Part shown: positions 60,274 to 61,862 of the stretch, piece by piece | Position numbering within the stretch: the stretch's first letter is position 1 | How the letters are laid out: every line of letters begins with the position of its first letter | Source of the DNA: Escherichia phage vB_EcoM_DE17 | Direction: 5' to 3' (one strand) | Sequence record: OP595146.1 | DNA: 64,000 bases | Program-made: the position numbers and the translations under genes | Notes under the pieces: model-generated | Database searches by the model: none | Told to the model about the DNA's origin: nothing | What the model saw: only the letters and a program-made list of their open reading frames with translations

Positions 60274-60352
60274 TGGTACTCCATATCGGATTCGAACCGA
60301 TACATAACACAGATTTTAAGTCTGGCCTCTCTGCCAATTGGAGTAATGGAGC
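60274..60352 (-). tRNA. tRNA with anticodon TAA (Leu-type) but short variable region
   Basis: Anticodon arm CCAGA-CTTAAAA-TCTGT, T arm ATCGG-TTCGAAT-CCGAT, acceptor GCTCCAT/ATGGAGT, 7-nt variable loop with no long arm. Confidence 0.55.
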
Positions 60353-60354
60353 AT

Positions 60355-60430
60355 TGGCGGGGGATGTTGGAATTGAACCAACTTCTTCGATTTCAAAGAC
60401 CGAGGTTTTAACCTTGTAAACTAATCCCCT
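60355..60430 (-). tRNA. tRNA-Gln (TTG)
   Basis: Anticodon arm TCGGT-CTTTGAA-ATCGA, D arm GTTT/AAAC, T arm GTTGG-TTCAATT-CCAAC, A1-C72 mismatch, discriminator G. Confidence 0.75.
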
Positions 60431-60438
60431 TTAAATCT

Positions 60439-60996
60439 TTACTTTCTCAGTGGATGAATAAAGAATGCCAACATAACTCTTTCCCTTGAGAATGCTCTTT
60501 CTTCTGGGACAACACTTTTTAGCTTCCATCCAACATAAATTCTCCAGTAGAATTGTTTACCAAAGACTTTAATTGATGGGATAAAAGCGAATAATCCCCA
60601 AGCATTACTGTTCCACATTAGGAGATAACCTGTCTGATTATCTTCAGGGTTAGAACTTACGTTGATATTACCTTTCCACTTAGTAACATCTTTTACATCT
60701 CTTCCTAATACATGGTAAGAGAAGTTATAAGCTTTGTTTCTCCAGAGCCAACCAACTCTCTGCATATAGACACCAAGCTTGCCAATCTTTCTAATCTTAG
60801 CCCATCGTTCGACATGCCCTTTATCACCATCAATTGGGTTGTCATATGTCTCCATCCATCTGAAGCCGAAAGGTAAGTGTCCTTTCTTCTCACTGTAAAA
60901 TGGAACTACAAAAGGTGCTAAGATAACTGCTAAGATTGCTGCAAATGGTTCTAACAAAGCTAAGAAAATCCATGAAGCATACTTCAAATATCTCAT
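60439..60996 (-). CDS. hypothetical membrane protein embedded in the tRNA array
   Basis: 185 aa with a hydrophobic N-terminus (ASWIFLALLEPFAAILAVILAPFVVPF) and a Trp-rich body. Confidence 0.6.
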   Translation of the reverse strand: MRYLKYASWIFLALLEPFAAILAVILAPFVVPFYSEKKGHLPFGFRWMETYDNPIDGDKGHVERWAKIRKIGKLGVYMQRVGWLWRNKAYNFSYHVLGRDVKDVTKWKGNINVSSNPEDNQTGYLLMWNSNAWGLFAFIPSIKVFGKQFYWRIYVGWKLKSVVPEERAFSRERVMLAFFIHPLRK

Positions 60997-61015
60997 CTAA
61001 ATAGCCTCTTTAAAT

Positions 61016-61091
61016 TGGCGCAGGATAAGGGATTCGAACCCCTATTAACAGCTTCGTAGACTGTTGCTCTATCCATTTGAACTAATCCTGC
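61016..61091 (-). tRNA. tRNA-Arg (ACG)
   Basis: Anticodon arm ACAGT-CTACGAA-GCTGT, D arm GTTC/GAGC, acceptor GCAGGAT/ATCCTGC. Confidence 0.85.
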
Positions 61092-61189
61092 TTACCTACA
61101 AGAACACCATACAGTTTTTCACAAGAGTTGTTTTTACGCCTGTTTTTGAATGACGCTATAAACTTTTTTGCAATTGACTTATTACTCAT
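61082..61189 (-). CDS. possible 35-aa basic micro-ORF between tRNAs
   Basis: AGGAGAACACTATG, then MSNKSIAKKFIASFKNRRKNNSCEKLYGVLVGKQD. The stop lies inside the tRNA-Arg 5' end. Speculative. Confidence 0.3.
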   Translation of the reverse strand: MSNKSIAKKFIASFKNRRKNNSCEKLYGVLVGKQD

Positions 61190-61205
61190 AGTGTTCTCCT
61201 AAAAT

Positions 61206-61283
61206 TGGTGTTCCAAGACGGATTCGAACCGTCACTAGTACAAGGTTTGAGCTTGCATCCTCTGCCAATTGGGATACTGGAAC
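61206..61283 (-). tRNA. tRNA with anticodon CAA (Leu-type) but short variable region
   Basis: Anticodon arm GCAAG-CTCAAAC-CTTGT, T arm GACGG-TTCGAAT-CCGTC, acceptor GTTCCAG/TTGGAAC, 6-nt variable loop. Confidence 0.55.
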
Positions 61284-61284
61284 A

Positions 61285-61359
61285 TGGTACTCACTAAAGG
61301 ACTTGAACCTTTTTCTTCATCTTGTAAGGGTGATGTTTTACCATATAAACTAAGCGAGT
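61285..61359 (-). tRNA. tRNA-Val (TAC)
   Basis: Loop CTTACAA, D arm GTTT/AAAC, T arm AAAGG-TTCAAGT-CCTTT. Confidence 0.8.
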
Positions 61360-61364
61360 ATGAA

Positions 61365-61451
61365 AGAGGTCTGAAGTTGTGCCGCTAACTCAACTCCGTG
61401 GGATTTGTTACGGTCTTCAGTTGACTCAAAGCGGTCTTTCACTTGACCTCT
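61365..61451 (-). ncRNA. ~87-nt rod-like hairpin spacer (not a tRNA)
   Basis: Outer stem AGAGGTC/GACCTCT, with inner pairings TCAACT/AGTTGA and CCGT/ACGG. No T-loop. Confidence 0.4.
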
Positions 61452-61455
61452 AAAT

Positions 61456-61531
61456 TGGTGCTCCCACAAGGATTCGAACCCTGATAAGTTGCTTACAAGG
61501 CAACCGTAATAGCCAATTATACGATAGGAGC
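61456..61531 (-). tRNA. tRNA-Thr (TGT)
   Basis: Anticodon arm GTTGC-CTTGTAA-GCAAC, T arm CAGGG-TTCGAAT-CCTTG. Confidence 0.85.
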
Positions 61532-61538
61532 ATTAATT

Positions 61539-61613
61539 TGGAGCATCCAGAGGGAATCGAACCCTCAACATCAGTTTGGAAGACTGTAATTTTCCCGTTT
61601 AAACTATGGATGC
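61539..61613 (-). tRNA. tRNA-Gly (TCC)
   Basis: Loop CTTCCAA, T arm GAGGG-TTCGATT-CCCTC, discriminator T. Confidence 0.8.
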
Positions 61614-61619
61614 ACTAAT

Positions 61620-61695
61620 TGGTGGAGTCACTGAGAATTGAACTCAGTTCCCAAGTTTGCAAAACTCGAATTTTAACCATATAAACTATGACCCC
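61620..61695 (-). tRNA. tRNA-Ala (TGC)
   Basis: Loop TTTGCAA. The G3-U70 wobble (Ala identity element) is present in acceptor GGGGTCA/TGACTCC. Confidence 0.85.
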
Positions 61696-61701
61696 ATTGT
61701 T

Positions 61702-61777
61702 TGGTACAGGTGGAGGGAATTGAACCCATCGTCTTACTGATTAAGAGTCAGCCGCATAACCATTTTGCTACACCTGC
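61702..61777 (-). tRNA. tRNA-Lys (CTT)
   Basis: Anticodon arm GCTGA-CTCTTAA-TCAGT. T stem GA(T)GGG/CCCTC has a 1-nt bulge, shared with the other Lys tRNA. Confidence 0.7.
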
Positions 61778-61784
61778 ATTAATT

Positions 61785-61862
61785 TGGTAGGAGACAAGGG
61801 ATTCGAACCCTCAAACACCAACTTCTAAGGATGGTAGGTTTACCAATTACCGTCAATCTCCC
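61785..61862 (-). tRNA. tRNA with anticodon TAG (Leu-type) but short variable region
   Basis: Anticodon arm CCATC-CTTAGAA-GTTGG (one T-T mismatch), T arm GAGGG-TTCGAAT-CCCTT, 5-nt variable loop, weak D stem. Confidence 0.5.

Follow-up and report, generated by a model that had tools for sequence, protein, structure and literature searches.

According to textbooks, bacterial tRNALeu is almost always type II, that is, equipped with a stemmed variable arm of more than about 10 nucleotides (nt). A 2019 study of Streptomyces likewise treats it in this way (PMC6614811). Type I tRNALeu are already known from animal mitochondria (PMC9976931) and from Streptomyces coelicolor (PMC6614811), and one line of a mycobacterial genome paper mentions, for a tRNA cluster gained by horizontal transfer, a tRNALeu(TAG) whose variable loop is short. 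Here we analyse a 64,000-nt stretch (the window) of Escherichia phage vB_EcoM_DE17 (OP595146.1), in which a sequence-only reading had picked out three tRNA genes that carry leucine anticodons (UAA, CAA and UAG) but lack the long arm. These genes are annotated plainly as tRNA-Leu in hundreds of GenBank records. We consider it likely that they are working tRNALeu of a Felix O1-like phage, charged by the host leucyl-tRNA synthetase (LeuRS). They join a known kind, type I tRNALeu, and the family-level picture is possibly unreported: searchable full-text literature, subscription journals excluded, yielded no description of armless tRNALeu as a phage class, of its D-arm signature or of its frequency, and the mycobacterial remark was all that came near it.

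The requirements of LeuRS are best described in E. coli, where the leucine determinants are A73, A15-U48, G18G19 and A20a, where the sequence and fold of the long arm are uncorrelated with leucylation, and where tRNALeu variants without the long arm, or even without the anticodon arm, are active if A73 and the D/T-loop contacts are intact (PMC9976931). Further determinants are A14 and T-loop pairs including U54:A58 (PMC6614811). Engineered armless E. coli tRNALeu (Larkin et al. 2002; Asahara et al. 1998, per PMC9976931) are charged and edited by E. coli LeuRS, and the phage genes resemble natural versions of these molecules, which, unlike the phage genes, are laboratory constructs on the host tRNA body. 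The type I tRNALeu(CAA) of S. coelicolor is bacterial and, like the armless phage genes, has a short variable loop (ACAGC, 5 nt); it is leucylated in vitro by its own LeuRS, for which A73 is no identity element, and coexists with type II tRNALeu in one cell (PMC6614811). The tRNALeu(UUR) of animal mitochondria is also type I, with its identity residing mainly in A73 and A14 (PMC9976931), but it is served by a dedicated mitochondrial LeuRS, is floppy in structure and has no sequence relation to the phage genes.

ARAGORN returned the three Leu genes at the same coordinates as the sequence-only reading, 78-79 nt long and on the minus strand (Table 1), and Rfam RF00005 (gathering score 29 bits) matches all three with E-values of 4e-8 to 5e-6. 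The ARAGORN cloverleaves and the Infernal alignments agree on the anticodon-loop registers (CUUAAAA, CUCAAAC and CUUAGAA) and on variable regions that are short, as claimed, and unpaired: GUUAUGU (7 nt) in the UAA gene, ACUAGU (6 nt) in the CAA gene and UGUUU (5 nt) in the UAG gene. Another anticodon register or a hidden long arm, which the earlier reading had named as findings that would overturn its description, is seen in neither the ARAGORN nor the Infernal folds, and the stemmed arm that defines type II is absent from all three genes. The tRNASer and tRNATyr of the same array do carry long arms, as had been noted, and ARAGORN finds no type II tRNALeu in the window, which bears out a further statement of that reading. 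Such a gene is also missing from the rest of the near-identical array of phage pinkbiff, which beyond the point where the window ends contains only Met, Glu and Pro tRNAs; the phage is therefore without any type II tRNALeu.

The extracted coordinates give A73, again as had been stated, and an encoded CCA in each gene. The UAA gene has a 7-bp acceptor stem with G1.U72, followed by U8 A9, the D arm CUC-C AAUUGGCAG A-GAG (60343-60327), the anticodon at 60318-60316, a variable loop at 60308-60302 that ends in U48, and A73 at 60277. In the CAA gene U8 A9 precede the D arm UCC-C AAUUGGCAG A-GGA (61274-61258), the anticodon lies at 61249-61247, the variable loop (61239-61234) again ends in U48, and A73 is at 61209. 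The UAG gene has G1.U72, U8 G9 and one extra nucleotide before or within the D arm, which reads (C)GGU-AAUUGGUAA-ACC(U) at 61852-61836; its anticodon is at 61827-61825, its variable loop at 61817-61813 and its A73 at 61788. ARAGORN places the extra nucleotide between the acceptor and D stems and Infernal places it in the acceptor stem; A73-CCA at the encoded 3' end is kept only under the ARAGORN placement.

The sequence-only reading had called the D arm of two of these genes Trp-like. The strings on which this was based, CTCC-AATTGGCAG-AGAG and TCCC-AATTGGCAG-AGGA, are indeed present, and the D-loop string AAUUGGUAGAG is shared with E. coli tRNATrp, but they are not specific to Trp. When representatives of all 20 E. 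coli K-12 isotypes, including five tRNALeu species, were aligned with the phage genes, the ten-letter string AAUUGGUAGA proved to be common to tRNATrp and all five tRNALeu. In the latter the D arm is GYG-[G/A]-AAUYGGUAG-A-CRC, with a 3-bp stem and an 11-nt loop, and the D arms of the UAA and CAA genes adopt the same register, stem and loop; both display the 3-bp stem, the non-Watson-Crick 13.22 pair and the enlarged loop A14 A15 U16 Y17 G18 G19 N20 A20a. The UAG gene has the same Leu-type D loop, with its extra nucleotide placed differently by the two programs. In E. coli tRNATrp, by contrast, the D stem is 4 bp and the loop 8 nt, with the last bases of the shared string inside the stem. That combination, together with the CCA anticodon and G73 of tRNATrp, is not found in the phage genes, which have A73 and Leu anticodons. 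Among 60 diverse relatives of the UAA and CAA genes (class A, below) the Leu-type D stem pairs in 100% of cells, with covariation at pair 10:25 (GC 42, CG 9, UA 6, AU 2, GU 1), whereas under the Trp-type 4-bp register only 56% of cells pair, and those at 12:23 never do. We thus read the supposedly Trp-like D arm as a leucine-type D arm. Whole-molecule identity to 30 E. coli tRNAs, with the variable region and anticodon removed, was rejected as a classifier: values ranged from 46 to 61% and the highest were a mixture of Tyr, Leu, Thr and Val, because the phage tRNAs are too diverged, and D-arm architecture alone was informative.

All three phage genes contain U8, A14, A15, U48, A73 and the T loop UUCGAAU, and have G18G19 at the host spacing (the AAUUGG register) with an A two bases after G19. 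The LeuRS determinant set (A73, U8:A14, A15:U48, G18G19, A20a and U54:A58/G18:U55/G19:C56) is thus complete in each of them. G3:U70 is absent from all three, which excludes alanine identity, and the full E. coli set makes leucine the sole plausible identity under established E. coli rules. The likeness to the tRNALeu of the host (leuZ UAA, leuX CAA, leuW UAG, leuQPVT CAG and leuU GAG) extends to the Leu anticodons, A73, U8:A14, A15 with U48, a standard T loop and a 3-bp D stem with an 11-nt loop containing AAUYGG-N-A in the same register; leuZ also shares G1.U72. The host molecules differ in being 85-87 nt long with a stemmed variable arm of about 13-15 nt, against 5-7 unpaired nt in the phage genes, in having G/A where the phage genes have C at position 13, and in having G where the UAA and CAA genes have A at position 9. 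The anticodon loops differ too. In the UAG gene (loop 61823-61829) A37 replaces the G37, an m1G37 site, of the CUN-reading host tRNALeu; C38 of the CAA gene (loop 61245-61251) breaks the A36-A37-A38 motif used for i6A37; and both genes have C32 where the host has U32.

Sequence comparison assigns the UAA and CAA genes to class A, an armless tRNALeu lineage of very wide occurrence that we define by the D arm N-C/U-C-C-AAUUGGCAG-A-G-G/A-N preceded by U8 A9. The D-arm 14-mer CCAATTGGCAGAGG was scanned in IMG/VR, where it occurs at at least 120 loci, and in one genome per prokaryotic species; the family counts that follow are among the matches listed. The 14-mer falls inside an ARAGORN tRNA at 77 of the IMG/VR loci listed, giving 78 tRNAs, every one of them 74-78 nt long with a Leu anticodon (UAG, CAA, UAA, AAG, GAG or CAG). 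The prokaryotic scan gave 62 tRNAs in 61 loci, again all short and all with Leu anticodons, so that 140/140 class A tRNAs carry one of these six anticodons on a body of 74-78 nt. Many of the bacterial representatives come from Actinobacteria (Nocardia, Rhodococcus, Gordonia, Mycobacterium, Arthrobacter, Corynebacterium and Amycolatopsis), where they are single genes on the chromosome, with variable loops such as ACAGU and CCAGU. Among 122 distinct sequences A73, U48 and U8 are each invariant (122/122) and A9 is present in 112; 113 have a variable loop of 5 nt and 9 have one of 6 nt, the acceptor stem is fully paired in 117, and G1.U72 occurs in 32. In the diverse subset of 60 members pairing holds in 99% of helix cells, with a covariation score of 0.97 compared with 0.22 in shuffles. 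The CAA gene matches the 14-mer exactly and its 6-nt variable loop lies inside the class A range of 5-6 nt; the UAA gene matches at 13 of the 14 positions, the G24-to-A change being compensated (U11:A24). A class A covariance model built here with the anticodon masked (R1) ranks the CAA gene first (72.8 bits) and the UAA gene second (67.9 bits) in the window, which is weak support for their membership; the model is partly circular because the D-arm 14-mer was used to select its training set.

When cultured phages were searched with the class A consensus, short tRNA-Leu were identified in phages of Bacillus, Synechococcus, Ochrobactrum, Streptomyces, Vibrio, Pseudomonas, Mycobacterium, Erwinia and Salmonella/Escherichia. 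Many mycobacteriophage genes labelled "tRNA-Trp" share 77-80% identity with the class A consensus across some 58 nt; the phage Trp and armless-Leu bodies may be evolutionarily related, or some of these Trp annotations may merit re-examination.

The UAG gene scores 25 bits with R1 and has no match to the 14-mer, and is therefore not class A. It is 83-85% identical to a 77-nt tRNA-Leu(UAG) of T5-like phages (DT57C, FFH_1 and others), which is also armless and has a T arm and 3' acceptor strand identical to those of the window gene. The D arm of the DT57C-type tRNA, UG-AUG-G-AAUUGGCAU-A-CAU, lacks the inserted nucleotide and is that of an ordinary type II tRNALeu; in T5 itself the equivalent position, immediately upstream of tRNA-Ala, is occupied by an 85-nt type II tRNALeu(UAG). 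A second 14-mer, GGAATTGGCATACA, marks 48 phage tRNAs, of which 47 have Leu anticodons, with 33 long and 15 armless members among the 48. We define class B as the armless tRNAs with a type II-like D arm (U8 G9, NNG-G AAUUGGCAU A-CNN, a U-rich variable loop of ~5 nt, and A73). The UAG gene is a probable member: it has U8 G9, A73 and the loop UGUUU, but its D arm, GGU-AAUUGGUAA-ACC, has one inserted base. Class B looks like type II tRNALeu from which the arm has been deleted and, with class A, makes at least two lineages that have lost the arm independently. The DT57C tRNA-Leu(UAG) (9005-9081, minus strand) has the anticodon loop CCUAGAA, with C at the almost universal U33; a related gene in a viral contig (L467) has the usual CUUAGAA loop.

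The 5-kb array region is 94-98% identical to that of Escherichia, Shigella and Salmonella Felixounavirus phages (KEP1, KEP3, pinkbiff, JH2 and others), and the source phage is, judged by this identity, a Felix O1-like Felixounavirus. Comparison with the tRNAs of related phages, proposed as a check by the sequence-only reading, came out in favour of functional genes. The same three Leu genes are present in Suspvirus SUSP2 and Mooglevirus KMM2, and armless genes also occur in Kolesnikvirus (Erwinia phage M7 and Salmonella phage ST-3), namely UAA (77 nt), AAG (78 nt) and CAA (77 nt), in which the acceptor, anticodon and T stems are wholly different and the D arm is unchanged. Armless Leu genes are thus kept across Felixounavirus, Suspvirus, Mooglevirus and Kolesnikvirus, four genera of Ounavirinae, with stems that have diverged yet are compensated. 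The anticodon stem of the UAG gene, for example, changes from ACCAUC/GUUGGU to AUCUCG/CGAGAU in pinkbiff and SUSP2, where it is fully compensated and a U.U mismatch is gone. The slot between Ser(UGA) and Lys(CUU) that houses this gene contains a probable class B gene in the window and in KMM2, and a class A gene in Mooglevirus Sf14 (16492-16568); the presence of non-orthologous UAG genes in one slot indicates gene replacement within the array.

In Sf14 the orthologues of Leu(UAA) and Leu(CAA) are each only 1 nt away from the window genes, and for these two a second proposed check, disagreement between isotype and anticodon, has a published answer. With the tRNAscan-SE 2.0 isotype models Leu_TAA scores highest as Leu (60.2; next Lys 54.2; Trp 32.1), as does Leu_CAA (49.1; next Lys 36.1; Trp 15.5), and both are classed as consistent in a report that never mentions the variable arm (PMC12482277). 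The score of the Sf14 Leu(UAG) is not transferable because the slot there holds a different, class A gene. The meaning of the codons was examined in the terminase of the window, aligned with 70 homologues of 40-46% identity. At TTA/TTG/CTA positions (n=20) 47% of homologue residues are Leu, 76% are L/I/V/M/F and 0% are Trp; the values at CTT/CTC/CTG positions (n=13) are 43%, 63% and about 0.1%, the Leu background at non-Leu positions (n=427) is 4.8%, and TGG positions align with Trp in 69% of residues. As TTA, TTG and CTA align with Leu like the other Leu codons, they mean leucine. In 39 long open reading frames of the window Leu is encoded by TTA (27.6%), CTT (27.5%), CTG (15.4%), TTG (13.7%), CTA (10.0%) and CTC (5.8%), and relative synonymous codon usage in Sf14 and its Shigella host is 1.63 versus 1.06 for TTA and 0.69 versus 0.43 for CTA (PMC12482277). 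This over-use of TTA and CTA fits the usual codon-supply role of phage tRNAs.

Of the options left by the sequence-only reading, unusual type I Leu tRNAs is thus the one that the Leu-type D arm, the LeuRS identity set, the isotype scores and the wider family all favour. From the sequence we infer expression, processing and aminoacylation by the host LeuRS. The three tRNAs would be transcribed with the array and processed to bodies of 75-76 nt with the encoded CCA. Leucine would be loaded by the LeuRS of the host (E. coli/Salmonella), which would read A73, U8:A14, A15:U48, G18G19 and the placement of A20a in the enlarged D loop, together with the D/T-loop elbow; the long arm would be dispensable because the enterobacterial enzyme does not use it. 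UUA/UUG would then be read as leucine by the UAA tRNA, UUG by the CAA tRNA, and CUA and probably other CUN codons by the UAG tRNA, which would add to the host supply at codons used more by the A+T-rich phage than by its host.

Several observations weigh against this interpretation. The most direct is that E. coli LeuRS failed to leucylate the S. coelicolor type I tRNALeu(CAA), and that the authors describe the E. coli enzyme as charging type II tRNALeu only (PMC6614811). It should be emphasized, however, that the S. coelicolor tRNA has C48 rather than U48 (PMC6614811), in contrast with the invariant U48 of class A. The A15:U48 determinant may therefore be missing from it, and its absence may explain the failure of the E. 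coli enzyme. Within the window, the three Leu genes score lowest in Rfam among the type I (short) tRNAs of the array, a C.U mismatch tops the anticodon stem of the UAA gene and a U.U mismatch occupies the same place in the UAG gene, and the latter has its extra nucleotide near the D arm. The 7-nt variable loop of the UAA gene is longer than in any of the 122 class A relatives among the matches listed (that of the Kolesnikvirus UAA counterpart is 5 nt). With R1 the margin of the CAA and UAA genes over the remaining window tRNAs is no more than 12-17 bits, and E. coli tRNATrp and tRNALys obtain 62 bits. The published isotype scores apply to the UAA and CAA orthologues only and leave out the window UAG gene. 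Finally, minimum-free-energy folding returns a cloverleaf for none of the three genes, the cloverleaves being 3.6-4.8 kcal/mol less stable than the computed minimum; a non-cloverleaf minimum is usual for an A+U-rich unmodified tRNA and tells little for or against.

It could be argued, as an extension of the host-charged tRNALeu interpretation, that loss of the arm is adaptive: host defence enzymes that target tRNA would grip the long arm of type II tRNAs, and the phage would supply an armless tRNALeu that is still charged by host LeuRS but is beyond the grip of these effectors. We regard this as unlikely, although it would account for several features of the data. To gauge how common arm loss is in a sample not chosen by Leu, phage tRNAs were collected by two scans anchored on the T arm plus a G73-CCA end (not found on Leu tRNAs), with the flanks read by ARAGORN; the resulting sample of 772 tRNAs is small and its ARAGORN calls are uncurated. 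Among 58 distinct tRNAs with Leu anticodons (one a 31-nt fragment), 28 real ones are <=80 nt, 3 are 81 nt and 26 are >=82 nt. The corresponding figures are 3, 1 and 46 for 50 distinct Ser tRNAs, and 1, 3 and 20 for 24 distinct Tyr tRNAs. About half of the phage tRNALeu in the anchored sample are therefore armless, while Ser (46/50) and Tyr (20/24) keep the arm; on the adaptive interpretation only Leu loses it because, among the type II families, leucine alone has a synthetase that ignores it. The absence of the arm from two independent lineages, and the exchange of class A and class B genes in one array slot, point in the same direction. There are also precedents for the kind of effector envisaged: human SLFN11 cleaves type II tRNAs, and MenT3, a toxin of Mycobacterium tuberculosis, depends on the long variable loop of tRNASer for efficient action. 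MenT3, however, prefers Ser over Leu, and we know of no enterobacterial effector that targets tRNALeu via its arm. Furthermore, class A is a single-copy chromosomal gene in many Actinobacteria, where defence evasion provides no obvious motive, T5 keeps its 85-nt type II tRNALeu, and neutral loss plus gene compaction explains the pattern equally well.

A second alternative, which we judge distinctly improbable, is that the genes specify tRNA-like RNAs with no role in translation, either uncharged decoys or sponges for host anticodon nucleases or other tRNA-binding factors, or decaying pseudogenes that persist in the array as processing spacers. The low Rfam scores and the anticodon-stem mismatches in two of the genes could be viewed in this light, as could the departures from the host anticodon loops at positions 32, 37 and 38 and the reported inability of E. 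coli LeuRS to charge one natural type I tRNALeu (PMC6614811). A pseudogene, however, would not be expected to belong to a family in which A73 and U48 persist in 122/122 relatives, and stems remain 99% paired through hundreds of double substitutions. Similarly, the restriction of class A to six Leu anticodons (140/140) fits decoding, several isoacceptors would be needless for a decoy, and the UAA/CAA/UAG set matches codons that the phage over-uses. An encoded CCA and an unbroken T loop are in keeping with a working tRNA, and the decoy option of the sequence-only reading sits poorly with compensatory conservation across four genera and an intact LeuRS identity set.

The last option, that Leu codons are read here by tRNAs with a different identity (Trp-derived, for example), in a programme of recoding or deliberate mistranslation, can draw on the occurrence of AAUUGG(Y)AGAG in E. 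coli tRNATrp, on the 62 bits which that tRNA obtains with the class A model and on the resemblance of some mycobacteriophage "Trp" tRNAs to the class A consensus, but is highly improbable given A73 in place of G73, the absence of a CCA anticodon, the failure of the Trp D-stem register, Trp isotype scores far below Leu in the Sf14 orthologues, terminase codons that match Leu no less often than the other Leu codons and never match Trp, and a host tRNALeu that reads the same codons in the same cell.

The genes are of interest beyond this phage. Felix O1-like coliphages carry armless tRNALeu only and must rely on E. coli LeuRS for them, which makes these phages a natural and readily testable setting in which to ask how type I tRNALeu is recognised by the leucine system that has been studied best. 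The short D-arm signature predicts a Leu anticodon, A73 and U48 in 122/122 distinct phage and bacterial tRNAs among the matches listed, which bears on tRNA annotation, where isotype models are built on type II Leu, on the evolution of the split between type I and type II, and on the design of compact or orthogonal tRNALeu scaffolds. The findings also bear on the idea that host tRNA-targeting defences shape phage tRNAs; adaptive arm loss, if true, would account at once for the roughly half of tRNALeu that are armless against armed Ser and Tyr, the loss in two lineages and the replacement in one slot.

Table 1. The tRNA array of the window, its three armless Leu genes and the type II genes used for comparison
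Feature	Coordinates	Strand	Description	Source
tRNA array	59079..63865	(-)	23 tRNAs; extends past window end	ARAGORN, Rfam
tRNA-Leu(UAA)	60274..60352	(-)	79 nt, encoded CCA	ARAGORN, Rfam 47.5 bits
tRNA-Leu(CAA)	61206..61283	(-)	78 nt, encoded CCA	ARAGORN, Rfam 43.6 bits
tRNA-Leu(UAG)	61785..61862	(-)	78 nt, encoded CCA	ARAGORN, Rfam 40.0 bits
tRNA-Ser(GCU)	59159..59251	(-)	93 nt, long variable arm; internal type II comparator	
tRNA-Ser(UGA)	62118..62207	(-)	90 nt, long variable arm; internal type II comparator	
tRNA-Tyr(GUA)	63631..63718	(-)	88 nt, short stemmed variable arm; internal type II comparator	

ARAGORN locates all the tRNA genes of the window in this array and none elsewhere. CCA is encoded in all of them except tRNA-Ser(UGA), and the synteny of the array is common to pinkbiff, SUSP2, KMM2 and Sf14. 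Rfam reports 22 of the 23 tRNAs; the tRNA-Tyr(GUA), called by ARAGORN, is below the Rfam gathering score. It has a weak D stem and a variable arm with a stem of 3 bp only, and its counterparts are labelled tRNA-Pseudo-GTA or tRNA-OTHER in some GenBank records of related phages. The array also contains an open reading frame of ~185 amino acids (60440-60997, minus strand), located between Gln(UUG) and Arg(ACG), whose counterpart in pinkbiff and SUSP2 is annotated as a conserved hypothetical protein; related arrays (ST-3, T5) have HNH endonuclease genes instead.

A near-consensus sigma-70-like promoter, TTGACA-17-TATAGT (11/12), lies at 62843-62815 on the minus strand, in the gap upstream of Arg(UCU). 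Promoter-like sites in the array region (12 against 11.9 expected) and terminator-like sites in the array (7 against 4.2 ± 1.9 expected) are not clearly above chance. The 455-nt gap between Lys(UUU) and Asp contains, at 63293-63368 on the minus strand, a weak tRNA-like match to the class A model (13.1 bits, E = 0.15) that includes a T-arm-like hairpin, GCGAAGGTTCGATTCCTTCAC. It may be a decayed tRNA; the equivalent region of pinkbiff is annotated as a small plus-strand open reading frame.

The record GU169904.1, "Staphylococcus phage SA1" (147 kb), holds a Felix O1-type tRNA region at 95.5% identity, which suggests a chimeric or contaminated entry. The gene that flanks the distal side of the array in Sf14 (12570-13985) is annotated as an RNA-binding protein with DUF2828 (pfam11443), and its equivalent in the phage analysed here lies just past the end of the window. 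In pinkbiff the corresponding gene, pinkbiff_42, carries an annotation as phage conserved protein of Salmonella phage FelixO1, and a link between this flanking gene and the tRNAs is possible.

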